Source: Marsupella aquatica (taxonomy: Eukaryota; Plantae; Marchantiophyta). From it: a DNA stretch of 64,000 nt. The stretch covers positions 19,479,869 to 19,543,868 of the forward strand of contig OZ316892.1 in assembly GCA_973895155.1 (NCBI GenBank). Reading direction: 5' to 3'. Positions 2,615 through 35,375 of the stretch are shown piece by piece; within the stretch, counting starts at the first letter, position 1; every line of letters begins with the position of its first letter. The notes beneath the pieces are model-generated. The model made no database searches. It saw only the letters and a list, made by a program, of their open reading frames with translations, and was not told the origin of the DNA. Both the position numbers and the translations under genes were made by a program.

Positions 2615-3625
2615 GTCAAGCTAGCAGAGCAGTCACGTACTAAGTACTGCAAAGGGATCCACAAGGTTGCGAGGGGGCCTTCAGGATAACAAGGAGTGCC
2701 AAGAGAATTCTTGGGTGTAGTTGATCGAGAGTATAAGGAAGGGTTGGTAGCAGGATAGTCTTAAGTAGGCGCCAAGCAAGGAGTCCCAGTTGATGAATGA
2801 CATATGGTTCTAGCTTGTTGTTCCGATCCTGGTCAGTTGATCATGTTTCAAAAGATAATTTGGTGTCCACTACTTGCGCATGGATAGAGACAAGATCCAT
2901 GGCTTGCCTGTAGACACGTGATCTGCAGACTAGTTGGATGCATGCATGAGAGCTTATATACAAGAGCTAGCTAGTTGCAGCTGACTAGGGACGGGAGTTT
3001 CGATCAGTTGCATGGAGAAAAAGGATAATATGCCAGCATTGATCATAATGTTCCTGAGCTGGTCAGGACTCTAGACAAACAATACAGATCAAGTTTCTTC
3101 TCTGTCAGTCCACAAAGGACCAATACAGGTCTGCAAAGAGGTGATTCCAATTAATTGACTTTCATTTTAGTCTAAGAAAGTCGTCTACCTCTGAATACAA
3201 AGGACTGGATCGGGAATATTACAATCAATGCTGGTCATCCTTCTTCCCCGACTAGTAAAGGCTCCCATCCCTAGTCAGTAGCAACTAGTTCTGGTAACCT
3301 CTGTACGTTTCACTAGTCTGGTCACTTGTCCACAAACTAGCCATGGATGTTCGTCATCTCTATCCGCATGCAAGTGGTGGACACAAACGTTTCTCTGCTA
3401 CATTATCATTGATCGACTGACCACGAACAACAATAAGGATGTCATTGATCATTTAGGGAGTCCAATCCTTGCTTGGCACCTATTTCAGACAATATATCAG
3501 CTTCCAAGTATTGCTCATTATTTCAAACTACACCGAGAACTCCTTCTCAAACGCCTCTTCAAACGCTCTCGCAGGCTAGTGGATCCCTTCTTAGCACTTA
3601 CTACGTAACTGGCCTCAAAGCTTGC
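2615..3625. repeat. ~1-kb imperfect inverted repeat (arms ~450 bp, centre ~3060-3210); possible bidirectional promoter or foldback element
   Basis: Reverse-complement pairs in nested order: AGGCGCCAAGCAAGGA (~2767) / TCCTTGCTTGGCACCT (~3466); TGTCCACTACTTGC (~2863) / GCAAGTGGTGGACA (~3370); GACTAGGGACGGGAG (~2983) / CTCCCATCCCTAGTC (~3262); CCAGCATTGAT (~3033) / ATCAATGCTGG (~3224); CAGTCACGTACTAAGT..AAGGGATCCAC (~2630) / GTGGATCCCTT..ACTTACTACGTAACTG (~3579). Confidence 0.85.
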
Positions 3626-3727
3626 TGTAGTGTGTATGGAAGCTCCTAGTTATACACTCGATCCACGGTGTATATTCATATTTATTTTATTCTTGTTCTC
3701 TCCATCCGGAAGAGAGGCTAGAAACAA

Positions 3728-4058
3728 TGGCCCGTACCAAGCAGACTGCTCGTAAATCTACAGGGCTCGGAAACAGCTTGTCACCAAGGCCCTGCGCATG
3801 AATGCATGCTTTCAACTCAACTTCAGCCAGGCTATATAGGACTGAAGAGGTCTCACCGATACAGGCCTGGAATGGCGGCACTTTGCGAGATCCAGAAATA
3901 CCAAAAGGCACAGATCATCTCATCCGCAAGCTTCCCTTCCAGAGGCTGGTTCGCGAAATAGCTCAGGACTTCAAGACCGACGTTGGCTTCCAGCTAGAGC
4001 CACGCTGTTCTTGCCATTCATTAGGCGTCAGAGGCATATTTGGTTGGTATCTTTGAGG
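3728..4058 (+). pseudogene. H3: Histone H3 variant pseudogene, copy 1 (frameshifted, 3' truncated)
   Basis: ATG GCC CGT ACC AAG CAG ACT GCT CGT AAA TCT ACA GGG = [13 protein letters not shown], later [21 protein letters not shown]. Several small indels. Homology to copy 2 stops at ATCTTTGAGG (~4058). Intronless. Confidence 0.93.
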
Positions 4059-5290: not shown

Positions 5291-6214
5291 GGGAGAATAT
5301 TCCACATGGGAAGGTGGTAGATCCACTGGCCCCCACCATTATTAATAATGGGCTGGACATGAATGGATGAAAGGTGCAAAAAACCTGATTTGAGATTGAT
5401 TTTTATAATTCGTTTAAAAGTATGAAGGGTTGGTTTTATTCAACAGACCCTTTCTAACTAATATAGGCTAATATAAATGTCAACCAAGTACATTAATATG
5501 CTTCAAGAGGTTATGTAATATGGATAGGATAATCTTATGTGGCCACCCTTTATTGGAACTTGTGTATATGAATATAATAATGCCTGCATCTATGATTCAG
5601 AGTAGTTAAGAACTTTGGGGCTGCCCTGGGATTCAAAAATGCCCAAAGTTGAAGTTTAGGGTTAAGGGTCACAAACACAAAATTGTATGTATCCCAAACC
5701 CTCCCAAACACTCCCATCACTTTTGGAACCTTTTAGCACAGTGATGATTTTATAACTTAAAATAAGTTTTCAAGGCTTTCGTAAATGATATAAAATGTGA
5801 AATTATCATATCTCAAAGTTACAAATTTATTTTCCAAAATTAAGTTTTTAAAAATAACAACACAAATTTTTATAGTTTCCCAAAAATAATTAACGGTACT
5901 AGGGAGGGTTACAAAGGCTTGGGGTAGATCAGGCTTGTGGATATCTCCTCCGGCAATCCTTTCAAACCTGGTCTCACCAAATAAACCCAGCCATTTCAGC
6001 AGTCAAAAAAAGTTGATCAAGCCCCTTGATAGAATAAACTAAAATATAGGCGGCCAGTGTGGATGCTACTTATTTCAAGCCAAGAGTTGCATGCATGAGA
6101 AATTCATAACATACACTTGATCCTCTTTGATCATTCAGTAACATATGCATGAACATGAGTGGTACCGCCGAGTACAATATTACTCTAATATTCCAAAACA
6201 GCTGAGATGTAGGC

Positions 6215-8169
6215 GCAATAGAGAAATCAGTCACATTGGAATCAAACAACGCAACAAGACCATTCCATTGCGAGAGAAATTGCTGAGATTGAATTCAAAA
6301 TTGTGCAACAATGAAATTTATTTTTGGGGATTTGATGTTCCTGCACAGTCGATCTAATTGTGTATCCCCATCCTATGACAAATCTCCTGAAGATAGAACA
6401 GAGCTTCCTAATCGTGTTCGACTTAGGCTAAAATCTACAAGGTGCCTACTCGCAATTTGAAGGTCTGAACCCCTTGCGCCATCTCTTTCCGAGGCCGGCC
6501 TCCAAGGAGCAGGTAGCCACCAGAACAATAAACAAAAGCGGCTTCACCTTCTAGCCTTCAAATCTGCAGAGGAACATGTACATTCAGTAAATTCAAAACC
6601 AAATTCAGCAACTTCATTTGCTTCGCTTACAGAAAGCTTCCATTGAAGAAGTAGCAACCAACTCAGAGTCCTGTGGACCGTGCGAGACTAAACGGAGATG
6701 CAATGACGAAGAACAAGCTAGACTTGAAAGCTGAATATCTCCTCCGTACCTGTCATGAATTGCGCGGCTTACTGTCCGGTCTTCTTCACGATGAACGACA
6801 CCACTTGCACCTGCTTCACGTTGTCGAAGCCGATGACGCGGATAAATGAGTTGGGGCATTCCTTCTTGCAGTTGACGACCTCTGACAGGACCTGGCCAGA
6901 GTCCTTGGCTCCGAAAAGGGGCAACTCCACATGCTTCAGTACCTCCCATCATAGTATCCGGGCATCTTACTCGCGGTTTGGGATACGACACCGTTCTTGT
7001 CGAACTCAATCGCGGGGATCCATCCATTTACCAACAGGTAAGCAATCTGCTTCTCGATCTCCTCGTCGGACAGGGGAGGCAAGTAAGAGAGGGTCTCAAA
7101 CTTAGTGTTGGTGTCCGGGTTCACGACCTGCACAATGAAAGGCCAACGTCAATAACCTTCACTCCAAGGAATCCTGTCATCTTCAAATCCGACCTGTTAA
7201 TCTCTCAAGGTTTCCTTGCTCACCTTGAGGAAACCCACCCGTGTAGGACAAGGGACATGAAGACAACTGGCGAACCTTGCGGAATTGACTGAGGTGACCT
7301 CATCCCGACAGACCACATCATTCGGAACAGAACTATACCAATGCAGCGCACAGCATTTGCTCCAAGAGCTTGTAGAACCACTTAACGGAAAACCGAGACA
7401 ACGAGCGACACTAAAAATGTACTAGAGGGACGACTGGCACTAGCTGCGGTACCAGAAATCGACCTACTAAGCCTTTCCACGCAGACGAACACCAACTTCA
7501 CCATTCAGAAAACAACCAACAGAACATGAAGGAAAGCAATGCGCTTCAGAAGAATTCATGCACGACATATACACATCGCCAATCAGTAGACAAACACTCC
7601 AAATTGAAGCAAAGAAGTAAGAAACAGCAGGCGAGCAGCTGAAACTCACATTGAACGCATTGACACGGCTGCCATTACTGACGGTCTTGCTCTTCAGAGA
7701 CGGGGCGATGCGGCTCTTCAAAGCAGGAGCGAGGAGCTGAGCGAGGGCGCTGGTCGAGGTCGAGGCCGTGGTCGCAATGCTGAGGGCAGTGGTGGGCGCT
7801 GCGCAGGCGGCAACAGTCATGGAAGCCATAGGTGCTACTGCGAAGAATAGGTGCGGGCTTTGTCGGAGGGAGGTTTCCGAATGAGAAGAAGAGTCGTGAC
7901 GAAGGGGACTGAAGGAGAGACTACCGTAGTGAATTTCAAGGGCATCTTGGGAATCGCCGAGCTCTGTCCCATCCGCCCCTTGGCATTGTCCTCTTTACTT
8001 ATTTACTGTAACATACGCCCTTTTCGCGGGGTCCCGGCCAATCTTTCCACCCAGTCAGCGTATACCCCCGTTCGCCCAGACCGCCCCCTTCGGAGCCGAC
8101 CGACCCTAACGTATGAGTAGTGTTTCGCAACCACAGACAAGCCCCACAACTCGAATTCGACGGTTGCCA
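6215..8169 (+). repeat. Near-identical ~1.96-kb direct duplication of 45325-47291 (rbcS with flanks)
   Basis: Both begin GCAATAGAGAAATCAGTCAC and end CGAATTCGACGGTTGCCA. Only scattered substitutions and small indels, including across the intron. Confidence 0.97.
6769..7829 (-). pseudogene. rbcS: Rubisco small subunit pseudogene (exons 7650-7829, 6769-7127)
   Basis: Same structure as the intact copy, but TGG>TGA at 6936-6938 in YYDGRYW and a 1-bp deletion near 6927 (exon 2 is 359 vs 360 nt). Confidence 0.95.
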
Positions 8170-9535
8170 AGAGTGCCAAGAGAATTCTTGGGTGTAGTTG
8201 AGATCGAGTATAAGGTAAGAGTTGGTAGCAGGATCGTCTTAATTAGGCGCGGCAATGAGGCCCCAATTGATGAATAACATGGTTCTAGCTTGTCGTTCCT
8301 GGTCAGCAGTCGATCCTGTTTCAAAAGACAATTTTGTGTCCACTACTTGCACATGGATAGAGACAAGATCCATGCCACGGCTTGCCTGTAGACACGTGAC
8401 CAGACTAGTTGGATACATGAGAGCTTATATATATATATACAAGAGCTAGTTGAAACTGATTAGGGATATGCATGGGAGACTTGACTAGGGACGGGAGTCT
8501 CGATTAGTGGCATGGAGAAAAAGATGACATTCCAGCATTGATATATCATAATGTTCCTGGTCAGGACTCTAAATAAACAATACAGATCAAGCTTCTTCTC
8601 TGTCAGTCCACAAAGGACCAATACAGGTCTGCAGATCGAGAGGTGATTCCAATTGGCTTTCAGGTTAGTCTAAGAAACTCCTGTACCTCTGAATACAAAG
8701 GACTGGGTCGAGAATATTATAATCAATGCTGGTCACCCTTCTTCTCCGACTAGTCAAGGTTCCCATCCCTAATCAGTAGCAACTAGATCTGGGAACCTCT
8801 GTCCGTTTCACTAGTCTGGTCACCTGTCCACAAACTAGCCGTGCATGGATCTTCGTCTCTATCCGCATGCAAGTTTCTCTACTACATGATCATTGACGGA
8901 CCATGATCAACAACAACGATGCATGTCATTAATCAATTAGGGAGTGCACTCCTTGCTTGGAGCCTATTAATTTCAGACAATATATCAGCTTCCAAGACTT
9001 GCTCATTGTTACACGAAACTCCTCTCAAACGCCTCATTAGTGTGAAGGCGCTCTCTCAGGCTAGTGGATCCCTTTTTAGCACTTAGTACGTGACTGGCCT
9101 CAAAGCTTGTTGTAGTGTGTACCGAAGCTCCTAGTTACACTCTCCATCCACGGTGTATATTCATTTTATTCGTGTTCTCCCCGTTCGGAAGAGGGGCTAG
9201 ACCCGTACCAAGCAGACTGCTCGTAAATCTACAGGGGGCAATGGGCCTCGAAACAGCTTGTCACCAAAGCCCTGCGCATGAATGCTTCCAACTCAACTCC
9301 AGCCAGGCTAGGACTGAAGAGGTCTCACCTATACAGGCCTGGAACGTACGGTGGCATTCCGCGAGATCGATCAGTAAATACCAGAAGGGCACAGATCTTT
9401 TCATCCGCAAGCTTCCCTTCCAGAGGCTGGTTTGTGAAATAGCTCAGGACTTCAAGACAGACCTTGGCTTCCAGAGCCACGCTGTTCTTGCCATTCATGA
9501 GGCGGCAGAGGCATATTTGGTTAGAATCTTTGAGG
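8170..9535 (+). repeat. Diverged direct duplication of 2694-4058 (inverted-repeat region plus H3)
   Basis: Both start GAGTGCCAAGAGAATTCTTGGGTGTAGTTGA and stay collinear through the H3 sequence, with many substitutions and 2-5-bp indels. Confidence 0.95.
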
Positions 9536-9627
9536 ACACCAACTTGTGTGCAATACACGCAAAGAGGGTGACCATCTTGCCCAAGGACATGCAGTTGGCC
9601 AGGCGCATTAAAGGAGAGCATTGCTAA
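9201..9627 (+). pseudogene. H3: Histone H3.3-like variant pseudogene, copy 2 (start codon deleted, N-terminal frameshifts, intact histone fold)
   Basis: Reconstructed: [143 protein letters not shown] (H87/L90) is the plant H3.3 signature. Confidence 0.95.
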
Positions 9628-11534
9628 ATTAGTGTTCATCTAAGTGCAGAGTTCCCTGGCCCATGATATTATTATATATCCATGCCAGAATTTGTACTGA
9701 ATAGGTCACACCATACATATATATATATCATGCATGACAAGGTTTCATGTAAGTTCTTGAATAAATATTTCCTTATTTATGGTCTATTTGCAACTATCCT
9801 ATACTCTTTTGTATATATGGATGACCTTAAACCCTAATTAAACTGTAGAGACCCATGATGCATTAAAGAAAATATATGCCTGGGCCAATGAGGTCAACAT
9901 CATTTTGACCGGACAAAAGTCAACACTGGCACCTACCAAGGAACCATCGCGGCTATAATTATCTTACTCCTCCTGACACACCAAACACAAATTAACTCAA
10001 TATGATTTTGGAAGACACAGGCAGAAACTTTGATATTTACCCACACAGAGACCTCTGCTTCCCATGACTTTGTGATCGATGTTCAACAAGAAGCCCCATA
10101 TCATTATGAAACCTACCCTGTGAACAGGATCCTTTTTCTTTAACATGAAAATTCTAAGGCTAGTCGCTTTCATTTCTTTATAAACAACAGTAAGTGGTAC
10201 TCTGTCGGGCTCAATTCACGGAAACCCCTAACATGCAATGGATAGATATTGCTTACATATATATATTAAATACATGAAGCTGGACATGAAGGGGGCACTC
10301 CACACAAAAGTACAATCATGAGAAGAGAACACAAATTCAGACTGAGTAAGGACGTGATGCATGTCCATATGGATTACAATATCAAAGCTAGGCAATGCGC
10401 CTATGGCAAGACACATGAACAATTCCCCTTTTTTATAAGGAAAACTTTTAATTCCTTATAATGGCTTTATAACCAATTGACTATGTAAAGTTTCATGAAA
10501 TTACTCTACTAAACACTTGTATCTCTCAACTCAATTAATTCAAGGATACAACTTTTTTTTTAAAAATTGTTTTGATATAGAACTACTTTCAGACCCGCTT
10601 TCAGAGAACAACCAAATGGTTTTATTTAATGCATGGCCCTAGAGCCAAACTACACTCCTTTCTTGGATTTTTATTTCAAATTTTAAAAACCTTTATATAA
10701 GAAATGTTTTGAATCCTACTTGGAGAAAGAGAGAAAGAGTAAGACAAAGTCTTGATATAACTCAGAAAAAAAATTTAAGTGGAAACCAAAGCTTTTATAT
10801 TTTATATTTTTTTATGATACCCAACTTTCAGTCCATACAAAAATGTAGATGCCTGCCTATTATACCAGAGTTGTGTACCTAGCCTGGGGAGCAACACTGA
10901 ACAACAAATTCAGACTAGGGAGATGTCCATATTGCTACAGCTTCAAAGCTCTCCATAATGTTTGAAGAGAACAAAACAAACTAAGTGTTATTGGGCAACT
11001 TGGTTTCACAATAAGGTTCTGAGTGTGAGCATGGCTCATAGAATGTGCCCAGCATAATTATGGAGGATTCTCTCCCCTGGGTTGTGTTGGCTCAAGAATG
11101 CCTCCCCTGAAGCCGGGTTGGTTGTACAAGACTCCTGCCGAAGAGGAAGAGTTCTTTCCAATGAGAAGAACCAAGTTGCCTGCATGGCATCAACTAATCG
11201 ATCCTGAAGGACATTCAGGATAAGGAGCTAGCAAATGCAACGGTTTTCACCGGTTAGCGGGCAGCCCACTTGTAATTCTTCACAGTGTGCAGATTAAAAT
11301 AAAGCAAACCCACTAGGCAGTCCAGTATAGCAATATGCAGCACAGAGACCCGAGACTCAATGCAGCCAGAATTGAAGAACATAATTATATCACCACATGA
11401 ACTATCAACTTGCAAGTTGATTGCTTGAGTAGGTCCACCCATTATTATAATTATTGTCATCGGGCTTGCAAAGAAACTATATAATTGCATAGTGAGAATT
11501 AAAGATACTCATAGACTAATTAAGCTAGTGTAGG

Positions 11535-12109: not shown

Positions 12110-13251
12110 TCAAAGCTCAATAGGACTCAGCAATTGTAGAGGATTAAAGTAATCTGACAATAAAGTACCATATGCCGTAGGGCACCCTCTAATTGACCAC
12201 ACAACTGGTCTGCTGTTGCTACTGAATCCGCTGCTTTGAACGATATACCATCCTTTGCTTCGGACAACATCTTGTCTCTTCCACCGCACCATTGCAAACA
12301 GTTCATTATTAACTGTTACAATTGAATATGGGTCAAGCTTCACCGAGTCTGTGGGGCCCAGTCCATCATATGCTATCGAAGACCAATGATCCCATGATTT
12401 GTTGTCATTGTTGTAAACATGAAATCCATCGGAGTCGGCTGAATAGAACTTTCCTTGCATCATGAATACGCTTTCAATATTTGAAAATCTATCAACCAGA
12501 TCCATCCTTGGTTCCACCACTCTCCACTCATCCTTGAGTGGATGATAAACCTGCCATGATGATGCCACTCCACTTCGACAGGCCACAAAGAGTTCCTCGC
12601 CCATATGTGTAACTCGAAGGGGGAGTTGCTCATATACCATTGGCTTTATTGGGGACCAGGCATCCACTTTGGGATCATAAAACTCTGATGCACAAGTATA
12701 GGACGTTGGATCCTCTGGGGAAGTACCACCGAATACATACAACTTTCCATCCTTGATACCACACTGGAAGGAGATTCTTGGTTCTAGCAAAGCTGCACAC
12801 TCCTTCCAGTGCATATCCCCAACTGCCACATCCAAACATGCACTCTTTGGTAGCTCCGGTTATTTGTGCTCATCCCTCCCAAAGCATATAATTTACCCTC
12901 CAATGCAATGAACTTGGGGGACCGAAATACAGCCCCGAATACAGCATCTGGGACTTGAGGAATTTTGTATAGACTTTCTTCACTAGGGGAATAAAGATAA
13001 ATCCCGTCGTGTCCTTGAGAAAAACTAGTGCCAATCCGAAGGACTATACAAGTTTCTAGTGAATGGCAGCAAACTGTGGCATTATATACAAGTCGACTTT
13101 TAATCACTTGCTGCCAACTTCGACTCAATGAAGACAGTAGGGCAACGTCTCTCCTTGGTAGTTTGGTGGCAATCTCCATCAACATTACGTCATTGGGTAT
13201 CCCTGGAAGAAGTTCTTCCAATAAAGATGGCATGATGTCTTGAGGGTCCAT
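12110..13251 (-). pseudogene. F-box/kelch-repeat protein gene, intronless, with one frameshift
   Basis: F-box motif LLPGIPNDVMLMEIATKLP...LSRSWQQVI; kelch motifs GKLYALGG and GKLYVFGG...EFYDPKVDAW. ORFs 12784-13251 and 12110-12835 join if one T is restored in the T-run at ~12835 (RVHV/LDVAVG). Could also be a homopolymer sequencing error. Confidence 0.85.
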
Positions 13252-16200
13252 AAGATTTATTCGACTTCGAGGTACCTGGAAGCACCAAGCACGAGAACGT
13301 ACAGTCTCCGTATTAATAGTCAGATCTATACCATCCTCTAGATCTCCTTATTTACCGAAAGCAGATTTCTTTCCTGCAATGAAATTTCTTCAACATGCAA
13401 AGATATGTACGTACTAATGGAGCCAGTCCTCTTCATTCTACAAATTCAGACCGCTAAGTATTCTATCCAACAACTAAATTAAAACCGTCAAACTACATGC
13501 ATCTCACTTCACTGGCAGAAGAAATATATACTGATTCAATTAATTGATAATTCACAAGCTAGAAGTAAGAGGAATGTAGGTTTTCAAATGGGTTTGAAGA
13601 AGTACATACAGAGAGTTTGATGAAGATCAAAGAAACCAACAAGAACCTTGTGGTGTGGTGTAGGACCAGAAGCTACGCAGGAACTAGAATTACGGAGATC
13701 GAGATTGTCTATAACAGGACTGTAGAGGAGTAGTCCACCGAAAAAGTGCCAAAACTCCTCCCGAATTAGAATCACAAAGCTAGAGGCGGAGACTGTCTAT
13801 AACAGTCAGGACTGTACTCCAAACAAAAAAGTGGAACTGGAATGCGAGATAAAGTTTCTCAGGAGCACGCAATGAGCTCTCAACTCAAAGTCCAAAGATG
13901 AATACGCAGGATGACTTATTGCAATGGACACATAAGGTGAACATAGAGAGGCAGCTGTGAGATAGAAGAATGAAGTAGAATGGAGGCAGAGTGCTTCTTA
14001 TAATGTACCCTGGCGCGCAGCAGCTGAAGTGCATGAGATATTAATGATGAAAGGGATGTGGCATTGACAATAGACAAGTTTCTAGTCTCCCCAAAAAAGT
14101 TTGACAGACCGAGGACTTGCTTGATGAAATAGTACTGACTAAAGACACGTTTCTCAGACTGAGCCAGAGTCCAACGAAGTGGTGCAACTTGGTGTCACTG
14201 ACTAAGCACTTACCTACATCTTCAATTGCTATTTCCCGACATAGTTTACAACCTACATTTGTTTGGGGAATAAATCTAGTTTGCATAATTAAGAGACAAT
14301 TCTGAAGATTTTGACTGGACCACCAGAAGTTATAATATTAAGTCCTATCAAATTTGAAAACGCTTAGAGATTGCGTTGTGTTCGCTGTTTAATTAAGGCA
14401 GCAACATGTTTCCCTGAGCCCCCCTTTCCTGTAGCAGGAGTCTACAGAGTTAGAGAGCTTAAAGCGGTGCTTTGCTCCAATTAATTAATTAATGTACAAT
14501 AAAATGGGAGAACAGCTGGGCATTCCAATTTTAGAATTTTTGGAGTAAGGAGTATGCATGAATGATGTAAAGGTGGACTCTGCTCCGAGATGTTGAGTTT
14601 GTATTATCAATTTCCGATGCCTTGGCCTTCTTTTCATTGGAAGATGGGTTAAAAATGGTTGTGGTTTGTGTCACTTAGAATTGTAAGTTGCATTGTTTGA
14701 CATGAGCACCCTCCAATATTGTTACTAGCTTCCAAAATTTCAGAAGCTAGTCATTAGGTGAGCTTGCTAAACATACCCCTCATGTAATGACTTCACCTAT
14801 TCTTCCAGCGGATGCCTTTCTGAGACATTATATATATGATCGAGCAGGATTTAAGGCAACAGGTGCGACCACAACACCTAGCTTCTTTGATAATTTTCTC
14901 TCTCAAAATGATATCGTGCGTTTTTGCTTTTACTGTTGTTTTGTTTAAGCTCTTTCTTAAACATGTCTCAGAACATTGGGTCGATCCAGTGCTTTTTCCT
15001 CTCCCAGAATGTCTTGTGCCTTTGCTTTTATTGCAGCTATCATTGTTGCGCTCATTTGATCTAAAACATGCCCCAGATTATTGAGTCGCAGTTCTGAGAT
15101 TCGTTCTCTCGAGCAAATTAGTTGGATTTTCTGCCTCTCTACGACATTTGGATCGATGTGTGATTGAGCTTGTTCCCCAAGCTTTGTGGAGTCCCCATTT
15201 TCAGGTACGTCCCATAGGCTCTGGTATAAGTTTTGCTGAATTGTAACGTGCTATCAGTAGGTTGGTGTGGCAAAAGTTGAGCACTAGACGAGATCCAAGG
15301 AGGATTCGGAATTGACAATTCCCTCACGTACTTCATTTGAAGAGATGGTTTCGAAAATGTGATGGTTGCACGTAGAAGCAATTACCCAGGAAGGCCTGAG
15401 TATGGTCGAGCTCTCTACTGCCCACCCGAATAACAGGTTTTACTGGCGAACTTGTTCAAGCAAATTTGGGAAGACACATATCTTTCTCTACCGCCAACCC
15501 GAACAAATAGTGTTGTACTCGATCGATCACGATAAAGTTAGCTAAGGCAAATATTTTCCCTAGCCTCACTTGTTTTCTTTATTAATAATTAATCATTCTT
15601 GGCTCAATGCTCACGTGTAATTGTGGTGGCGTGTTCTCATACCAATAGTGTTGTCTTGTCAACTAAGGTTGGCATTGAAGAAGCCTTCTCACTGGTTGGG
15701 TTGTTGTGGAACTGGTTGTGGAAGTGTGTCAGTTAGTAAATGTACTTATCGTTGCAGCTGGGTGTTGTTGGGGAAGGTTGGCAGTAAACGTTGCTGTAGT
15801 TGCATGCAGCTGGGTATTCTTAGACCGAGGTGACACAATGATCGACTAGAATGAATGCAAGTGGTGGAGGAAAATAACAAATGGTGAGGTGAATATGCAC
15901 AATGACTAGATTGAATGCAATTGGCTGGGCGGGAACTATCATTAATTTGAAAAACATTGTTTGGTTAGAGAGGCTACCGCAAGTTTCTTTGTGCATTTAA
16001 TGCTCAAAAAAGACAATTAACACTCACCTAATTTGATAACATGATAAGCATAGCTAAGAATCATTTCTGTACTATTTTCATTACATTAAATTAAAAATAA
16101 TTAGCATATATTTGATACTAAAACACGGTGAATCTTAATCATAAAGAACTTGCGGCTAAACCTGGGGATGATGAAATGGATAACAAATACTCAGGGCCAA

Positions 16201-19551: not shown

Positions 19552-22388
19552 CTATTGCTTCTTAAGCAATCTAGAGTTCCATAGGGCATTCATCCCTTTC
19601 ACATCAGATAATTTAGACTGGTTCTCCCCTGAATTGGCAAATGGCAATGCCACATCTACAAACACTTCAATCACACGCACTCGCAAGAAAGGGCTTTCAA
19701 AATCTGCACAATGAAACTTATCTTCTCCTGGCAGCCCTGTCACCTCACCTTTTGCCACTATCATGGAATTGTCCACAACGCTCTTCATCTTCACCAAATC
19801 TCCTCTTGCAAACTGTGAACAACACATTTTGTTAAAAATGCAATAAACAGAAATTGAAAGATAGAAGAACACTCAAATCAAACACACATTTACCTTTGCA
19901 ACGGGGTTAGGAGACTGCATTGGTTTCTTCTGTGCAGGTGATGCATTTGCTGAGGATCCTTTCTTCCTTTTCTTCTTTCCCTTTCTAGTTGATGGAGTGT
20001 CATCCTGTTCACTTGGAATGGGAGTTTCTTTTGGCAACTCAGATGATTCTGGGGTTACATCTGGTGTCAACTGAGTCGACTTATCCTCTGGCAACTGAAA
20101 GGCATCTGAAATGGCTTCTTTGGGCAACTTAGATGGCAAAAGGTTCACTTCCAATTCAGTTTGCTTTAGAGTACTGTTAGCTGTGTCAGTTGGTCTTCCC
20201 TGCGACACAGGAGGCTCCCCTAAAGATGCTGTCATAAAACACACACAAAAGAAATGCATAAACAAACATGTATACACCAGCAACATATAATCACACTAAA
20301 AACATGCAAGAACATTATAAACATGCAATGACATATACACATCACAATAATTACATTGAATGGACAGTGTATACATGATAGAGAATTTTACCTTCATTAT
20401 CGCCTGAAAAAGTAAGAGATCGCTTTCTACTACCTTGTTTGGTAGTTGTAGTCAACTTACTGTGACTAGGCACAACTATTGGAACTTGTGCATTACTGGG
20501 GTGATGTGCCATCCACGTAGTCATCATGTTTGTCAACTCCCTCACAGTGCCTTTCAACTCAGCGACATCCAATTTCACAGCCCCAATGGTAGTGATCTCT
20601 TCTTTTGAATGTGGGGTCTGTAAATGAACCACAAACCAACACAACAGTCTCACTGTCAAACTTACAAACGACACAACACTGGCTCTGTCAAATGGAGAAT
20701 GATGTACAAATCAAATTGGTATGACAATACTCACAGCTGATCCATGTCTGTTTCCTTGCCCCAGTAAGCTAGCACTTTTACCCTCCCCACTTGCCAATGA
20801 TGGGCTCACCTTTGCTCCCACAAAACTACCAGTCTGACCTTCTGCACTTGCCAATGATGGGCTCATTGTCACCTTTGGCAATGAACCCTGACTACCATGG
20901 TTTTCTTTCAGGTCAGATATACCTGGGCTTGATCCCCTCTTCTGCTTCTGTTCAAACACACAATGAATGAGAAATCACAGAGTTTGTTTTCATCAAGATT
21001 CACAAACAAGACAGAATTGATAGTGAAAATGATAGACAATTTACCATTCTCTTTGCTGCTGCAGCATGCCCTCCCCTTCCAAAGTGAGAGGTATCTTGCA
21101 CTCGTGCTCTTTTATCAGTCATCTGTTTACTCAAAGATATCAATGCTGGACTGGTAAAATGAGATACCAAAGCTGCCCATTTCTTTGGATCAACACCAGA
21201 TGGCCCAGGTTTGGTTGGATCCTCATTGCAAACTTTCTTCCAATAAACATGCATTTTATGGCGCTCTCTCTTCAATATGCCACGACAATGACTCTGGAAT
21301 TTGGTGTTAATAAATTCCCCACCCACATACTCCCACTCAGCTGCCATGTTATTCCACACTGTGGTTGTATGAACTTGTGGATGATCAGTCCATTTTGGCT
21401 TTGATACATCAAAGACTCTGAGTACGTTGCCATGAAGTTCCTCCAACCAGTATTGTTTGTTGCCATCAGAATCATCAATATCATTGTCATAAATCTGCAT
21501 TTCACAGACAATGTCAGATCATAACTCTGGAATTTATGCAGAGTCCAGGTTTTATACACACAACAACAGAGAGGATCAGATTTGTCTAAATCTACAAACA
21601 AGTACAATACTCACTTTAATGTGTTTGGGCACCTCTCCGCAATCCCTTCGTTGTTTGGCAGTATTATCAAACTGCTTCTTAGCATGCCTTCGTTCCCTGC
21701 GCATCTCAGAGGCCCCTCCTGCAATGCACACACATGCATTCAATCAAAAAATATGTACATGATTGAAAAGTTGAGCAAATGTACTTGCATATGCATGACG
21801 AGCAGATTGTGTATTACCTGAAGATCCTCTGGAATGTAGTACATCAGATTGACCTGATCTGCCTTCAGATGCTGATGGAACCACTAAACAAACACACAAC
21901 ACCAAAGCACTTCAATTAATTTCATTTCCAAGTAGAATATCAACTTCCAAACACACCTGAAAAGTAGAACAGTACAATCCACTCACTTTCATATAAGAGT
22001 CCAGTGTCTGGGTCTTTCCAACATCTCACTAGCCCACCTCCACCAGGCCCAGTCTTCTTAGGACCACAATTTTGTTTCTGTACCTACATCATGGACAACG
22101 TAAGCATATCAACATATAATTTGAAAAAGGGACAAGGATCCCTTCCTATTAGGATGATGAAGTTCAAGCATTACCTGTTGTGCACTCTCTGGTTCTGACC
22201 CACCAATGTCAGAATCCTCAGTGTCATACTCAGAAGGAGAACCATAGCCATCATCACCAAACTCTGCCATGTTCACCTTGGTAACTTCTGATAGTCTAGA
22301 GCTCCTCCTCTTTGGCAATGTTTCAGTTGAAGTACCTTTCACCAAAGCAGGCTTTCCTCTCTCTCGTTGTACATGTGTGGTTGGGCCT
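19552..22388 (-). CDS. TnpA-like (Ptta/En/Spm plus C-terminal Tnp1-like domain) multi-exon gene; start not determined
   Basis: Exon ~21045-21497 has PSGVDPKKWAALVSHFTS...S...KR.....HFGRGG (Transposase_24-like). The last exon ~19552-19812 has VAKGEV...RVRVIEV..DVALPF...LSDVKGMNALW (Transposase_23-like). Low-complexity exons with GT-AG borders lie in between; exon limits are approximate. Confidence 0.75.
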
Positions 22389-22817
22389 CTAAGGAACAAA
22401 GCAATCATCAACATACACCAATGCAGATCAAACATACATGCAAAATGAATCTACAACACCGTAACACTAGTACTTATGTACAGGATCCATACTAGTATGA
22501 GACCAATCTGGAATATGAAAACAGAACATGAACCTGACAACTCCATCTACTGAATCAAATTTGCAATAGACATATCAACACACACATCAGCTTGCAGTCT
22601 GGCCCCAGTCCTAGATCACGCATAATTCTGACATTATGCTCTATGTTCCGATTTCGGGCCTCCTCATAAGGATTCACAGAATGTGACAACCCTTGCAATC
22701 TTCCTTTCACAGGCTGCATTCACCAACTGCACAAATGGGTAAACCATTAGTCTGATTTCATAAATAGTCCATACATGTAGTCCATCTATGGACTTCACAC
22801 ACCTAGCTAAAACCTAT

Positions 22818-25800
22818 TCACTGCTTAGGCCTGCCCTTTCTTGCAGATCCCTCTGCATCTCTGCCTCGTTTGGGACCAGTACTTGGTCCTGGATTTTCTC
22901 TGGACCTACAGGCCTTAGCCAATTCGATGTGTAATTTGGCATTGTTTTCCATTGTAGCATGGAAATCAACGTCTGTGTAATCACCTAACACCCTTGTGGA
23001 CCTGGATTCTTTGTGGAGGATTGTTCTCCATGCTATCCCCTTCTCATTGGGGTGGAAGAAAACCTGCTCCACTTGCTTTGGGAAAACGTAATCCATTTTC
23101 TTGGACACACCCAGTTCTCTATGGAAATTCACCTGCCAAAGACCAGACTTGGTATACCTCATACTGGCAGAGGATTTAGGAGTCCATGATGGATCTGCCC
23201 ATTTCCCTTTGAAAAGAATCACCTCTTTCCTCAAGCTGCCATAATTCAGTACCAAGATATCTGTCAAGGCCCCTACATACTGTACAGATTCTTCTATGGT
23301 TGCACCAGACCTGTCCACTCGCTTCTCAGTGAATGTAGAAGCCATCCCAGAATCAAAAGTGCTGAAAGCACCAGAATCACAATCACTCAAACACCCCAAG
23401 GATGGAATAGTCCTCCAATGGTGCCCATAGGCTCTACATGCCCTATACAGACGTGCCTTCAAACTAGGTGGTGTGGAGTATGCAGATAGTAATGACCGCT
23501 CAGACTCTTTCTCAAAATTATGGGTATTGACTAATGTTTGAAACCATTCCCTGAAAGGTGGCAATTCTTGGCAGTCTACGGGAAATTCCACTGGTTTTCT
23601 TCGATTGGCAGGCTTCCTCATCCACTCCTTCCGGAAATCCACTCTTCGTTTGGTAACAGTCTCATTGGTAGCATCATATATCCTGCATGGCAACAACAAC
23701 ACTGAAGACATTAGTGCACGATCCACCATGAATATACAAACACAATGGGGCAACATAATTATGATCCATATGCCTAAGGATAGGAGAGTTTCTAGGGTTT
23801 ATGTACCTGTACCATGGAGCCACTGTCTCTTCATTCTCTAATATATAATGATGCATGGCCATCATTTCAGACCAATCCAAAGTTATCGCCTTTGCAGCCC
23901 CTTCCAAAACAATGCCTGCAACGCCAGCATCCTCCTCCAACTCCCAGGTTCGTTTTCCCTCTCCCTTTGCATCAATCATGTATTCAAAAAGAAATCCCAA
24001 AGACTCATCTAATACATAGCCTTCAGCCATAGAAGCCTCTGGACGTGCCTTGTTTCGTACATAACCCTTCAATACCTTCAGGTTCCTCTCTATTGGGTAC
24101 ATCCATCTGCCTGTAACTGGGCCACACAAGTCTAATTCCTCCACTAGGTGAATCATTAAATGGGTCATGACATCAAAGAAGCTTGGTGGAAAATGGATTT
24201 CCAAAATGCAGAGAGTGAATGCAACATCCATCATCAAATTCTCATACATTGAAGGGTCCCACACCTTCGTACAGATCTGGCGATAGATATTGCTCACCCC
24301 AGCTATGGCCAAGCGAACCCCTTCATCAAGTAATCCCATTGTTGCCAGAGGGAGAATCTGTTGCATGAGTTGGTGGAAATCATGTGATTTCAACCCAGAG
24401 AGTTTCTTGGATTTTGTAACACACTTTGCCAAAGAACTTGAAAAACTAGTGGGCCCTTTCAAGGTCAATAAAACCTCCAAGAACCTTGTTCTTTCCTTCT
24501 TGCTCAGGCAATATGGGGCTGGGGGCATCAACAATTTGTCATCCTTACGCTTGGGAGCTGGATTGGGTACAAGCCATAGGTGTTGGCGCACCTGTAAGAG
24601 CTTCATGTCTTCTCTCACAGAAGGAGTGTCCTTGGTCCCAATGATAGTGTGCACAATGTTGTGTGCAAGATTCTTCTCACAGTGCATGGGATCTAGACAA
24701 TGGTTAATGAGTAGTTTCTGCAGTGGACACACAATTCAGAAATTAGGGCATTGAATACAACTTTTGGCATCACTGGGCAGTAGTTTGTGCAGTGGACACA
24801 ATTCAGAAATTAGTGCATTTAATACAACAATTACAAAATCTGGGCTACAGGAAGTATATGAAGAGAATATATTTCAAAGTCATATGAAGAGATTGCAGAA
24901 ATTCATTGTAGTAGTATGGAGTCTTACATTCCAATAGGGCAACTTGTACAGACCAGTAGCCCTCTTCACTCCATGCACCTTTATGGGGCATTTCTCATCC
25001 TCAACCTTGGTTCCTCCCTTCTTCAAATATTCTGTTGTCTCGTCTCCCCACTTCTTTCTATCAGAGCTTGTCATTCTACACGGTGCAGGTCGACTCTCAA
25101 TTGCACCATCAAAGTATTGTGCACTATCTGGTCTACGAAAAAGATGCCTTGCTGCTAACCATCGACGGTGGCCACTGTACTCTAATTTCTGCAAGTGCTT
25201 AGAACCACGTGCCACACATTCTGGCCCACAGATGACACATCCTTTGTATCCAGAGTGTTGTTGTCCAGATATTAAACCATATGCAGGGTAATCATTGATT
25301 GTCCACAATAGCACAGCCCTAAGGTTGAAGTGTTGAGACAATCCTGGGCGTGGCAATTTGTCAAAGCAGGGCACTCCTTTCTTCCACAACAGCTCCAACT
25401 CCTCATAGAATGGGCCCAATATTATGTCTAGTTGTTCCTCTGTTACTGAATCAGGTCCTGGAATCAACATAGCTAGCATGACAAAGAACTTCTTGGTGGT
25501 AAGCCAAGGAGGTAAATTGTAATTCAACAACAGTATTGGCCAGGTAGACCAAGCTGTGGAATTATTCCCAAAGGGATTCACCCCATCAAGTGCCAACCCA
25601 AATCGCACATTCCTTGGTTCAGCTGCAAATTCCCGATCAATATTTGTATCCACATGCTTCCAAGCCTTTGAATCTGCTGCGTGCCAAACCATGTTGTCTG
25701 TGCTTCTATTCTCATGATGCCAAGTCATGAGTTTAGATGTACCAGCAGTGGCATACAATCTCTTCAACCTGGGAATTATAGGGAAATACCACACTACCTT

Positions 25801-26787
25801 CCTTGCCTGTAATGAATTCCCCACTCTCTTCATCTTGGGCTGCTGACACACTGAACAGTTTTCTAACTTGGCATTCTCACCCCTAAAGAGCATACAACCT
25901 TTCTCACAGACAGGGATTCTCTCATAATCCAAGCCAAGCTTTCTCAATAGCTGCTTTGCAGCATATAAGTTCTTGGGCAGATTATGCTCTGTAGGCATAC
26001 CATGCTCCCCCATCAAAGACAACAATGCATTCACTCCTTTGTTTGAGAATCCATGGCCATGACAGATGTTCAGCAGAAGCAACATGAATGACACAACATC
26101 TATTTTGCTGCCTGGGAACAAAGGTTGCATTGCTGCATCTAAAGATAACTGTGCAGGATCAGTCTCCACAGGAGTTTTGGAGGTTTCAAGGGGGTTTACA
26201 GGATGGGCACCTCCTTCACTCTCATCATCCCCAAGTACAAAATCCAAGTCAAAACGGTCCTGATCATCTAGCTCATGCTCAGGGGATTCTTCACTGGTTC
26301 TCAGCAACGTTTCTTCCAGTAGAGCCCTGATATGTTCTTCGACATCTATAGTTCGATGTTCTTGAACATCCACAGTTGGATACTCTGGAACATCTACAAA
26401 TAAATGTTCTTCAACATCTACAGTTGGCTGTTGTGCACAGGTTGCCTGCTGAAGGTTTGCTACCCTCAATGCCTCAGGGCCATGTTGTGACATGTAGTCA
26501 GCACCCCACTCTTCATCAGAAGAGTCCTGTCCCTCTCCCACCCACACTCGACATGCAGGGTACCGACCATGTTTAATAAGGTGCAGTCTAGCAGTATTCC
26601 GATTAGTCCTATAATTCCCTTTGCAGTTCACACAAGGGCAGTACATCTTATGGTCCCCACTCTTGTGGCAGGCCTTCTGTTCTCAAACCCACAAAGCATC
26701 ATCACGATGTTGTACTCTAGCTGGATGGAAGAGCAGCAACTTTGGAGTTCTACCCACACCTAACGTATTCTGTGGCAATTGTGCCAT
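22818..26787 (-). CDS. TnpD-like CACTA transposase, 3 exons (24928-26787, 23807-24717, 22818-23682), with in-frame TGA at codon 35
   Basis: Motifs YCPCVNC, RNVRFGLALDGVNPF...STWP...NYNLPPW, LRAVLLWTINDYPAYG, LDPMHCEKN, GLKSHDFH, FPPSFFDVMTHLMIHL...GPV..RWMYPIER, NKARPEASMAEGY, YVFPKQVEQVFF. GT-AG joins keep the frame (3636 nt). Stop at 26683-26685; next in-frame ATG is 26646. Confidence 0.93.
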
Positions 26788-27383
26788 GCTAGCTTGATTG
26801 AAATTGTATTCAAACTATGATTTTCAAACTGAATCAGAGTGACATGCATACAAAATTGGGCCTACCGTCACAGTTGTACAACCGATGCCAACCACAGTCC
26901 AATTGCTCAAACCCACAGAGCCCAGTTTCTCAAATCCACTGTAGTAGGGCACCTTCTCCTTGCATACAAATAGAGCATCACATACAGTGTCATCAGAATG
27001 ATACTATGAACGTAAATCTCTGTGCCTTCATCATTTCCAGTATTTGTTTGCCTATTAGGAATGTGAGCAGACAGGTCTGGAATAAGTAACGTTTGTGACA
27101 CCAATGACAAATTTACAAGTGAAGTTTAGACATCAATATGGAGGAAAGTCACACTCAAAGTACATGCTTGAAAATCAGAATCCTACCCTGGAAAAGATAA
27201 TAAAGTTGATTTCTCAAAATTAATTGCCTCAATCCGCAATGCACTGTCGTAGAGTGTGTATACATGAGGAGTTCATCAAACTGCATATAAATAGTCCACA
27301 TGTTTTAGCACTCTGAAAATTGTTTAAGTCCACGTGAAACCATCAAAAAGCTCTACTCAAGTTTGTGTTCGATCCAGCCTCAA

Positions 27384-28043
27384 TCAAATCCAAGATATGT
27401 GGCTCCTAGCAGGAGTGCCTAGTGTAGGGTCAATGTCATGGTCAGGACAGTAAAACATCCCCTTCTTGGGCTGCCCATGCGCTGAGTGATCCCAAATTGT
27501 TCGATCATGGGCAAATCCCCTCTGCTGGATAAACAGCAGGCAGTCTTTGTGCCATGCCTTAGGACACCTCATGCACTGAACCAAAAAGCCATTAGCCCCA
27601 TCATTGGGCCCCTGTCCACAAGTAAGACAAATATGGAGTCCACATGATGCTGTGCCAGGAACCAAACACTGCCAACAGTAAAACCGGGCACAGAGAGAGT
27701 CTGGACATTTTCTTACCTCTTCACCAATTTTTCCAGACACATGGCACTTAAAGCAAGAATGTTCCTCATTCTTGCAATCAACACAAAGCCATTCTCCAAC
27801 ATGGCCATCAGCGAGGGATATAGTTGGGCATAGCCATTGCTGACCCAAAGGACAGGAAACATTCTTATGGAAATGTCGGTGGCAAGGCCCATCACAAACA
27901 ATGAGATCCCCTCCCTCATCACAAATCGCACATACATGTGGACTATTCTGGTTAATCTCAATGTCTGAATATAAGGACAATTGAGGTGCTTGAGAGGATT
28001 CACCTCTGCAACGATTCATGGCCTTCTGCTTATTGCGAGCCAT
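27384..28043 (-). CDS. Transposon-borne EDM2-like triple PHD-finger protein (219 aa)
   Basis: VCAICDEGGDLIVCDGPCHRHFH...WLCVDCKNEEHSCFKC...C....CARFY...CGLHICLTC...CMRCPKAWHKDCL...RTIWD...FYCPDHDIDPTLGTPARSHI matches the order and spacing of the EDM2 PHD region as recalled, including its C-terminal YC..H.ID..L.TP.R.H motif. Uninterrupted ORF, with a splice acceptor (GTGCAG) a few nt upstream of the ATG. Confidence 0.85.
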   Translation of the reverse strand: MARNKQKAMNRCRGESSQAPQLSLYSDIEINQNSPHVCAICDEGGDLIVCDGPCHRHFHKNVSCPLGQQWLCPTISLADGHVGEWLCVDCKNEEHSCFKCHVSGKIGEEVRKCPDSLCARFYCWQCLVPGTASCGLHICLTCGQGPNDGANGFLVQCMRCPKAWHKDCLLFIQQRGFAHDRTIWDHSAHGQPKKGMFYCPDHDIDPTLGTPARSHISWI

Positions 28044-30329
28044 GGTCCTGCACACTCAGACCCTACATCAGATTGTGAAACAAGAAGGAATAACAGGGTG
28101 CAGTATGACACAAAAGAATGAGGGTGCAGCATAAAATATGACATGTAACCACAAGGGTGCAACATAAACCAATGTTTTATAGATGGCAAAGCATTTAGGA
28201 CTGAGCAACGCAAATAACCTTGGCCTAGATGATTGGAAGCAATCACAAATATTGCAACCTGTATGCCTTTGCTTGCTGTACAGCAGTGCTCACTCACCCT
28301 GCCTTTTTAAAATCTGTAAGGGCAACACAGAACAAATAGCAATTGAGTTTCAGCAAAGCATTCATTTGGCTCTCAAGTTTTAAAATGGACAGAGCAAACA
28401 CAACAATGTGCACAACAAAGCACAGAGAGCAACAAAACTCAAGCAAACTGGGACTCAGGCAAGAGATACGAATTTTAGCAGCGAAATCAAATCAAGATTC
28501 GGACCTGTGAGTTCAACATGCAGTGCTCACTCACCCTGCCCTTTTTTAAATCTGTAAAAATCAAGTTTTATTGTGTGCCTTCTACATCTTAAGCTGCTGC
28601 ACACATCTGTTACAGAACCATAAGTTGCTTTACTCTCAACAAGCTGCTGGTCCACCCACTTTTTCAAAAGCTGCACCGTACTCTATCTTCGTGCACAAAT
28701 GACTATACCGGGCTGCTGTCAGAGACCCTTACGAAGAATTTAAAATTGACCAAGCTGATTTTAGTTTAGTTTCGTCCAGTTTGCAGACCAAAGGAAATCA
28801 TGTGGCTGTATTCATGGAGTTGTATTCATTGCTGTGTATGGATGTTGTGTGAACATCAGACAGTTAGCTGTAAATTACCATAGTTGAAGAGCAAGGCTTG
28901 TACAAAAGCCACTAAGGATTTCTCTGAGGTGGCACAGCAGTTGGCAAACCACACACGAAACTCTGAAACTTTTTGGCGACAAAATTCTACAGAGTCGCTG
29001 CTGGAATCAAGTGAGGATTCACCATACATGCCTGCACTTCTCTTCAGTAAAAAAAAGAGAAAAGAAAAGGGCTATGATACAGAGGGATGTCAAAAGAAGA
29101 GTAAGGAAACCAATTCATTGAGGAACATAGACAGACTAAGGAAAACATCATACAATGGAAAACTAAGGACTACATTGTAATAATAAGAGATCAAGCTCAC
29201 CTTGCACCACAAAGATTGTCAGACGACAACAAGACAACAAACTGAACTGAACATAGCAGACAAATCCAACAAGTAGCAATCAGAAATCAACAGCAGACAG
29301 ACAAAGGACAACTTGGTCAGAACTCGGGCACTTGATTCAGTTGTGGTAAATAGCCGTTCAGGTTCTGGACAAGCAAGAGCAATATGTGAGCAAACTCCAG
29401 AAAAATCATCTCTTGAGATTGAGGAGAAAGGCATTTCCCAGCCAGCTTACTTATGTCTTGAAAAATGTATCGGACATCGTGGACGCTGGGCCTCAGCTGC
29501 TGGCCGCAAGGGAAGATTTTGCCAAAACAAACAATAAAGCTCGAAGATAGTTAAATTTCTTAGGTCTTTCTAAATGGGGACTGAATTAGCAATTAGAACC
29601 AGTAAACCCTGATCTTGGGCAGGCAGAGAGAGAAGAGTCCGCGCCTAATACTTATGTCTACCCGAATTTTACTGGGACATATGAGCATTGGGATGCCATT
29701 GCAAAGCAGAATTTTGTAGCAGTGGAAGGAATCAACATAGATAGCAGTGGAAGGTCGCAGTGGAGCTAGCATGGTACAGGGAAGGAAATGCAGACATTGT
29801 GCGAGAAAGTGCAATGGCTAGTTCTATGGGATTTCCTTCTCCAATCCATGACAGTGCCGACGACACGCACAACTGCTACAATCAGTGCGCGTCCAGGATG
29901 CTCCATCGCATCACGTCAGGGAACTCAACATTCTAGACATTCGAAAACTGCATTCACATTTCTCTGCAAAGGGAACTCAACATTGTAGACATTCAAAAAC
30001 TGGTGCAAAACTCAGGCACTTAGAGAGAGAGGGACAGAGAGAGAGCGAGAAAGAGAGAGCAAATAGTCTCTTAGCAATCGGAGCTTCTCTGTCATTGCCA
30101 TAAGCATACTAGCAGACACTAAGCAACAGAACAAGAAGGCAACATTGGATTCATGGACTGACAGCACATTGGTAGCACATTGGCAAAAGCAAAGCAAAAA
30201 TGCAGAATGAACAAATGGCCAGAAGGGGAAGAAGCGCAAAATTGCACAACTGACCTTCTCGCACCTCAGCCCAAACTCGCTCCCACAGATATAAGTTCTC
30301 GCAGCTCCTTGATGGAACCTCCTGTAGGT

Positions 30330-31357: not shown

Positions 31358-32269
31358 TGGCTGTTTGTGTAGGTGCCAACAAGAATGTTAAGGACCAATG
31401 TTATATATAAAAAATGATGCTAGCGATATAAAAGGTCCGATATATGCCCGCGATATAAACCCATAACCCGCATGCATGAACACCATTTTGGACTACCTTA
31501 TTGTCTCACCATATGATAGTGATACTCATCCAAATATTAGCATTTAATAGCTCTCCACTCCTGACTCAATTGAGAGAAACCCTCATTCATGACTCAAGCA
31601 CAATTATAGGGTCCCTTACATGCTACATGACCACTACATATGAGGCTATGTTGTGTAAGAGTTTTTGAGAGCATTACACCAAAGCATTAATAAGTGAGCC
31701 TTCCCATGACTATATGACCTCCAATATGCCAACATTAATGGCTTCCAATATGACAGCGTGAGTGACCCCACGTTTAGTCCTCAGATTGAAGCACCATTTA
31801 ATTCACAAATGACCCAATGAACTCCCTTGTACCTCCAAAGAGAACCCCCCAATAGCCTTTGTAAAGACCACATTTCCATTTGGTACTTCTGACCTCTAGT
31901 ATGACAACCAAGATTACCCTAATTTGAGGTGTTTCCATTAATGACACACCATGAGGGACCTCTCTAATGACCACATATGCAGTCAATTGCTCCAAATGAC
32001 CTCTAACTAACTACCAAAATGACCCTTATTGTAGTCATTGACATTAATGACACACATTATGTGAAAATGACCCAATGAAGAGTATACTACCTCTCGGAGT
32101 GCCCCTTTACAATTCCTTTGGAATTTAATAGAATATATCCAAAATCCAAATATCGGCACAAACATGACATAGTTATATAGAAGGACATAGTCTTCCACTA
32201 GTATTGCACTATATACCTCTTGGAGAGACAAAAACAATTTTTGTATGCATGCCTTAGGATGGTATGCAT

Positions 32270-34790: not shown

Positions 34791-34864
34791 AATTATGATA
34801 GGTGTCTGGAATGACTATTGAGTATTTTAATCTTCATATCTCTTGGGTTCTTTAATGACTCTAT

Positions 34865-35375
34865 AAGTAGTCATTTATGTAATAAGTCCATAATGACTGT
34901 ATGTTATTGTAAACATTGATATATGCTGATTTTTAGATTAACCCTATATTTAGTCATTTATGCAACAAGTCCATAAGGACAGTATGTTGTTGAAAACACC
35001 GATATATCCTAATTTCAAGATTGACTGTGGAGTTAGTCATTTATGAGAGAAGTCCATAATGACGGTATGTTCTTGTAAACACTGATATGTCCTAATTTCA
35101 AGATTGACCCTAGAGTTAGTCATTTATGGCAGAAGTCCATAATGACAATATGTTGTTGTAAACACTGATATATTCTCATTTTCAGATTGACCCTAAATTT
35201 TGTCATTTATGAGAGAAGTCCATAATGACGGTATGTTCTTGTAAACACTAATATGTCCTAATTTCAAGATTGACCCTAGAGTTAGTCATTTATGGCATAA
35301 GTCCATAATGACAATATGTTGTTGTAAACACTGATATATTCTCATTTTCAGATTGACCCTAAATTTTGTCATTTA
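34865..35375. repeat. 83-bp subterminal tandem repeat x6, with alternating variants (166-bp higher-order unit)
   Basis: AGTCCATAA at 34885, 34968, 35051, 35134, 35217, 35300; units 3/5 and 4/6 are near-identical. Confidence 0.93.

Follow-up and report, generated by a model that had tools for sequence, protein, structure and literature searches.

Two broken copies of an H3-like gene in the liverwort Marsupella aquatica both encode methionine in place of lysine 27, and they appear to be pseudogenes of an intronless, H3.3-derived variant family that is common to Calypogeia. K27M is the H3 change known from childhood brain tumours. The copies lie in the window, the whole 64,000-nucleotide stretch analysed here (contig OZ316892.1, positions 19,479,869 to 19,543,868 of the forward strand), which is plant nuclear DNA with RbcS, F-box-kelch, SKP1 and CACTA transposon open reading frames. 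The explanation that we prefer, and to which we give about even chances, is a K27-less, H3.3-derived variant: the ancestor of the two copies already carried M27 in an open frame and would have been a functional H3 evading Polycomb methylation. Apparently new is the tail-remodelled H3.3-like family, known here with M27 as pseudogenes; K27-evading plant H3-like histones were already known.

Two pseudogenes in one duplicated unit

Copy 1 was traced by sequence alignment on the forward strand from its ATG to about codon 105 (3727–4058), where unrelated sequence interrupts it at 4058. Copy 2 (9202–9627, forward strand) is full-length and intronless, with its stop codon at 9625–9627. The codons for A24-L25-R26-M27-N28 occur twice in the whole window, on the forward strand each time, starting at 3789 in copy 1 (3789–3803) and at 9269 in copy 2 (9269–9283), with the M27 codon itself at 3798–3800 and 9278–9280, respectively. 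The N28-to-K36 tail segment of copy 2 (9284–9316, forward strand) is four residues longer than in H3.3, and the histone fold (9367–9624, forward strand) follows in a single frame with the H3.3-type H87 and L90. Because both copies lie inside one duplicated unit (2694–4058, with its second copy at 8171–9535 on the forward strand; 81% identity over 1445 columns), M27 is a single observation with one origin, not two.

V21, L25, R26, M27 and N28 are encoded in both copies (A21V, A25L, K27M and S28N), and lysine is absent between K23 and K36 in each. Residues K4, K9, K36, Y41 and S86-H87-A88-V89-L90 are retained in both. The fold changes that they have in common are S57G, E59D, R83G, L92I, Q93H and L103I; the fold of copy 2 combines the family markers G57, D59, I103 and M124 with stem or private changes (G83, I92, H93, C72, R102 and L120), and its best PDB match is a plant-type H3.3 with H87/L90. 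Among the features by which PMC4357034 recognizes plant H3.3, Y41, H87 and L90 are present in the copies, residue 31 is Ala in both instead of Thr, and the coding sequence is continuous instead of containing introns, which places it in the ‘H3-like’ class of that paper.

Copy 1 has a 10-nt deletion (codons 13–16), three 4-nt insertions, a 1-nt deletion near K56 and a nonsense codon at E94. Copy 2 has an 8-nt deletion that removes the ATG, a 1-nt deletion in R17, a 4-nt insertion after T45 and 4 extra nt after I51, its inserted bases being aligned as 4 + 3 + 1. Each coding gap was polarised against P0003, an intact Calypogeia protein, over all 512 keep/drop combinations. Each of the 9 coding gaps is private to one copy, as are the missing start codon and the nonsense codon, with 0 shared lesions, and the ancestor was therefore open in frame over 108 shared codons, M27 being present in both copies. 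Both copies are dead, and each died separately after the duplication. Over the 310 columns in which their coding parts align there are 20 substitutions (6.5%) and 9 gaps, against 88 substitutions in 968 columns (9.1%) in the upstream flank (Fisher P = 0.16). Changes since the duplication amount to 5.5 synonymous and 14.5 nonsynonymous (ω = 0.83), which is indistinguishable from neutral evolution (P = 0.60). The indel rate in neutral DNA of the duplicated unit is high, at about 0.37 per substitution, and 4 nt is the commonest indel length (8/31 in the flank and 4/9 in the coding part).

The first-pass annotation had placed A21V, A25L, K27M and S28N before the duplication and had called both local copies dead; the codons starting at 3789 and 9269 bear out the one statement, and the private frameshifts, the stop at E94 and the lost ATG the other. 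Its list of retained features (K4, K9, K36 and SHAVL) is correct for those residues, although the fold that it took to be kept has the six common changes given above. K14N, which it reported in copy 2, is seen there, whereas copy 1 is deleted at codons 13–16 and the paralogues described below read K14. The four-residue expansion is likewise present, but not in copy 2 only as had been claimed: copy 1 and the intact proteins P0003 and P0122 have it too.

A degenerate foldback of 1 kb (2617–3624, assigned to neither strand), with arms of about 430 bp at 2617–3064 and 3203–3624, belongs to the duplicated unit and ends some 100 bp before the ATG of copy 1. The arms align with a score of 262, compared with 37 for the best of 30 shuffles, and the element is likely to be a DNA-transposon relic. 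Its counterpart upstream of copy 2 extends from 8171 to about 9109. Contig depth is elevated over the foldback end (9055–9116), to which paralogue contigs join, and several rounds of copying may have carried the foldback element and the H3-like gene along together.

A tail-remodelled family in Calypogeia

Among the best 120 of 7996 hits, the single-domain protein that matches the copy-2 fold most closely is the 140-aa P0003 from Calypogeia fissa (86%), whose cluster contains two further Calypogeia proteins. P0003, P0122 and P0121 (CAM6123591.1, CAM6123593.1 and CAM6084411.1, respectively) are unnamed gene products and intact. Copy 2 carries all 7 of the 7 family markers (the four-residue expansion, L25, R37, G57, D59, I103 and M124); among 244 fetched proteins, 6–7 of the 7 occur only in the three Calypogeia proteins, and the next best has 4. 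A protein tree of 48 rows, comprising 47 fetched proteins (133–148 aa with the H87 motif, others being left out) and copy 2 with X at its breaks, grouped copy 2 with the Calypogeia proteins at 79/88, a weak grouping on a long branch for which the bootstrap had not settled. On these residues, the copies are to be read as derived from an H3.3-derived variant family and not as decayed ordinary H3.3.

The Calypogeia proteins resemble the window copies in L25, R37, G57, D59, I103, M124 and H87/L90, and two of the three, P0003 and P0122, have the same longer tail, collinear without gaps. They differ in keeping K27 and the second lysine and in having S26, S7, V80 and, in the two long forms, D28, whereas the window copies have R26, M27 and N28 and are broken. 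The ARKS motif is thus rewritten in all three Calypogeia proteins (L25 and S26, with D28 in two), and the K27 region is duplicated in two. In P0003 and P0122 the four additional residues are a repeat that gives two K27-like lysines; the repeat is absent in P0121. In the window copies, Met replaces the first of these duplicated lysines and Asn the second. The expansion is present in copy 1 too once its private 4-nt insertions are removed, and its occurrence in intact P0003 and P0122 makes it old and not specific to copy 2. By this comparison, much of the tail remodelling (L25, the four residues and R37) predates M27. We considered and rejected the idea that the expansion had accumulated from the 4-nt micro-duplications common in this genome, as the segment is collinear in the Calypogeia proteins and in the gap-free paralogue contigs. 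No published description of a liverwort or Calypogeia H3 variant like the P0003 family was found in the mostly open literature searched, which included the accessible text of 10.1101/2024.09.22.614159.

Further paralogues in sequencing contigs

Contigs of the four sequencing runs listed as containing this sequence (X1–X4, from two studies, with no RNA run among those listed; X1 may come from the source sample) were aligned to 8900–9800 at 80% likeness, and the paralogue readings cover 40 difference rows out of 154 and 32 pieces out of 142. The depth of run X1 at 9299 (61.4) partitions into 15.3 for copy 2, 18 for copy 1, 11.1 and 17.0 (the last by subtraction), which indicates two further copies, paralogues 3 and 4. 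A piece from run X3 (record 19) spans 9251–9345 with 13 differences and 0 gaps, and one from run X2 (record 12) spans 9331–9503 and is frame-intact; it differs at 17 positions, and its 8 gap letters equal the size of copy 2’s own insertions. Gap-free paralogues read K14, G15, P16 and R17 in loose contig ends of runs X1 and X3, and the loose end of one paralogue reads P38-R39-R40. Paralogue 3 has a nonsense codon at R49, also in a loose end, so that gap-free does not equal alive. Other members show V35 (9314), R83 (9466), L92 (9493), G102 and M120 among the difference rows listed. In the same rows the Asn at the second lysine is unchanged, which makes the loss of lysine at this site a family-level feature.

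For every listed difference row there is a run in which the nearest aligned end is 33 or more letters away; codon 27 is only 29 letters away, so that residue 27 falls outside the paralogue readings. Reading it from tallies per kind of difference was rejected, because differences near aligned ends may go untallied. Other pieces have indels or joints of their own, indicating that several family members have decayed, and paralogue contigs join the end of the same upstream sequence (joints from 9120/9121). The contigs show a family with birth-and-death turnover, several more members of which exist in this genome or in related ones.

Timing of M27 and alternative explanations

The fully readable paralogue letters (74 nt, with 22 synonymous and 52 nonsynonymous sites) show 5–6 synonymous and 3–4 amino-acid differences from the ancestor of copies 1 and 2. 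These give ω = 0.21–0.34 (one-sided P = 0.024–0.095), counted by hand from contig fragments in three zones, two of them loose ends, with codon 27 outside. The stem of copies 1 and 2 is 0.08–0.13 substitutions per site long if rates were equal on both branches; with equal rates again assumed, a fully neutral stem predicts about 10–16 shared indels and 20–33 shared amino-acid changes. The 0 indels and at most 7–8 changes seen are far fewer, and the stem was therefore mostly constrained. At residues conserved in H3.3 and Calypogeia, the stem changes are A21V, K27M, V35L, P38S, R83G, L92I, Q93H and perhaps R52. Of these, V35L, P38S, R83G and L92I are common to copies 1 and 2 and absent from paralogues (rows 9314, 9466 and 9493, and a loose end before 9331), and their presence on the same stem points to a possible relaxed phase, R83 being what we take to be a DNA-contacting arginine. 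A short final neutral phase of 3–7 substitutions would leave no shared indel with probability 0.33–0.08, and a rough two-hypothesis sketch gives 0.44–0.99 for M27 before loss of function, depending on the assumed priors. We consider it probable that M27 arose before the gene died.

The first-pass annotation had proposed a once-functional variant lineage, with an intact paralogue perhaps elsewhere, and had suggested dN/dS as a check. The intact Calypogeia relatives, the open ancestral frame and the synonymous excess in paralogues agree with such a lineage, but the intact relatives keep K27. As to an intact paralogue, no intact M27 member was found in the proteins and JGI contigs searched. The ω of 0.21–0.34 between paralogue and ancestor (74 nt, codon 27 outside) speaks for constraint, with R83G and P38S on the same stem suggesting relaxation.

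A somewhat doubtful alternative is that K27M is a mutation of decay, the parent having kept K27 as the intact Calypogeia relatives do, and one daughter having lost constraint, gained changes and then been duplicated. A single transversion would be enough for it, the paralogues lack four of the changes common to the two copies, R83G among them, and evolution after the duplication was neutral (ω = 0.83). The foldback precedes both copies, and its landing about 100 bp upstream could, for example, have been followed by K27M, A21V, V35L, P38S, R83G, L92I and Q93H, a sequence of events that we hold equally tentatively; paralogue contigs, however, join the end of the same upstream sequence, so the foldback need not have been a disabling insertion. 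Decay is also difficult to reconcile with 0 shared indels or stops at about 0.37 indel per substitution in neutral DNA, with the synonymous excess against paralogues, and with a chance of about 0.25–1.25% for exactly this transversion on a 1–5% neutral branch. The label K27M itself depends on register (M or N), as MAFFT pairs the second lysine of P0003 and P0122 with canonical K27. It is unlikely, in a reading that overlaps the others, that the functional site of the duplicated K27 region is the second, now Asn (K27N-like), with Met in a freely evolving spacer. The canonical spacing to Pro30 and Lys36 belongs to the second site, the window Asn lies 9 residues before K36, and P0121, without the repeat unit, keeps one lysine followed by A-T-P. 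Met is nevertheless residue 27 by N-terminal count and by its T22-K23-A24-x-R26 context, and only the Met site has Arg at −1.

There is a slim chance that R26-M27 would occupy the E(z) active site and inhibit PRC2 in trans, the ancestor or a living paralogue having been selected for this. A living leafy-liverwort paralogue with Arg26-Met27 that competitively inhibits PRC2, which we think quite improbable, would be a histone-borne counterpart of mammalian EZHIP. Its use would be erasure of H3K27me3 at meiosis or gametogenesis, or an embryo’s resistance to Polycomb silencing of the paternal genome; a genome-wide H3K27me3 drop in erasing cells (spore mother cells or sperm precursors), or a countering of embryonic paternal silencing, is a long shot on present sequence. 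Arg at −1 is kept in the copies (Calypogeia has S), and the available text of PMC6513997 describes Arg at −1 as preferred by PRC2, +1 as less critical and Met or Ile as needed, and reports that an H3 tail with a foreign M-bearing EZHIP segment lowers H3K27me3. H3.3K27M reduces H3K27me3 in Arabidopsis (PMC11997104, excerpt). In Marchantia, paternal chromosomes are coated with H3K27me3 (PMC9402228, excerpt) and this methylation has been removed once meiosis ends (10.1101/2023.05.17.541143, excerpt), but histones are absent from sperm (PMC9402228, same excerpt) and, in the text available, a male-germline H3 variant was not found. No intact M27 gene or protein of the copies’ family was found in protein clusters or JGI contigs, both local copies are lost, and P30 is 4 residues out of register. 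A Medicago-type family with M, N, A or H at position 27 further suggests that any non-lysine suffices.

Proposed mechanism and known K27 variants

Under the preferred explanation, that of a K27-less H3.3-derived variant, Polycomb would have been unable to methylate the ancestor because both lysines of the duplicated K27 region had been replaced, by Met and Asn. H87 and L90, which are HIRA-binding residues according to the available text of PMC9797984, would have directed replication-independent (HIRA-type) deposition. Nucleosomes containing a variant without the H3K27 acceptor would then have diluted H3K27me3 wherever it was expressed, like Arabidopsis H3.15, which lacks K27 (PMC9797984, same text), and H3.10, which is immune to K27 methylation (PMC8566409, excerpt). 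The gene was then duplicated together with about 1 kb of upstream DNA, after which the copies died separately. As embryos of liverworts keep the paternal genome silent with H3K27me3, a mark that is gone when meiosis is complete, a K27-less variant of this kind is a concrete candidate for resetting it. A living M27 paralogue that inhibits PRC2, if one exists, would mean that a plant had evolved the cancer mutation for its own use; if only dead copies carry M27, it is a pseudogene curiosity beside an uncharacterised variant family.

Arabidopsis H3.15 (HTR15) and sperm H3.10 (HTR10) resemble the copies, which have no lysine between K23 and K36, in a K27 site that is lost or unmethylatable (PMC9797984 and PMC8566409, excerpts), and the H3.10-like protein P0064 has G15, R37 and D59 as well. 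According to the part of the PMC4357034 table available, H3.10 keeps K27 and H3.15 has H27, whereas the window copies have neither; both Arabidopsis proteins are intact and expressed, and the copies are known here from DNA alone. Orthology of the copies to H3.10 or H3.15 was not found on the 48-row tree, where the H3.10-like P0064 and P0119 form a separate group (97/87). Like the H3.3K27M oncohistone and the EZHIP peptide, the copies combine Met and a preceding Arg (−1), here within an H3.3-type protein, R26-M27 matching the inhibitor sequence (Met or Ile at the lysine and Arg at −1; PMC6513997, excerpt) in a register that depends on the alignment. The oncohistone tail is otherwise canonical, whereas the copies differ at 21, 25, 28 and from 30 onward and have four additional residues; both are broken, where an inhibitor of this type requires an intact, translatable gene.

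M27 occurs in 2 of the 285 tails that match the search motif among 392 fetched proteins (P0042 and P0114), each a single uncharacterised JGI prediction, and natural M27 is therefore not unique to the window copies. Both are full-length predicted H3 proteins with Met 27 and, like the copies, Arg 26. M27 in P0042 has an independent origin, as this protein groups with Medicago P0046 at 99/90. P0005, P0007, P0011, P0018, P0042 and P0046 form a Medicago-type, tail-expanded H3.3-like family with N, A, H or M at position 27; loss of K27 thus recurs in intact tail-expanded plant variants as N, A, H and, in P0042, M. Rice Os02g25910 has K27M according to the text of PMC4357034 and K at 27 according to its supplementary table, as far as these are available; no further paper naming it, and none describing a natural plant K27M for the copies’ family, was found in mostly open literature.

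Searches for an intact M27 member of the copies’ family covered cluster representatives, and such a protein could be hidden behind a canonical representative at the 90% or 50% clustering level. The tail frame of copy 2, searched against proteins of 71–2000 aa, gave 6 candidates, none of which scored. Residues 16–70 of P0003 retrieved no other family member among the best 120 of 7922 hits, and P0003 searched against 50% representatives retrieved none with the family markers among the best 150 of 21287. A degenerate G57/D59 motif matched 17 loci in JGI metagenome contigs, mostly divergent H3s and a few non-histone sequences, with no family tail and no M27, and the ESM Atlas returned generic H3 clusters only.

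Other features of the window

A recent 1.96-kb duplicate with RbcS sequence (6212–8169 and 45322–47291, 97%) borders the copy-2 unit on its left side, at 8171. A CACTA-type element on the reverse strand (21000–28055) contains Transposase_21, DUF4218 and DUF4216 open reading frames, with an adjacent frame encoding NSD-like PHD fingers (27384–28055). Also on the reverse strand are an F-box-kelch gene split across two frames (12110–13347) and a zinc-knuckle and RING open reading frame (41246–41809). Tandem arrays with units of about 580 bp and about 83 bp occupy 31939–35375.
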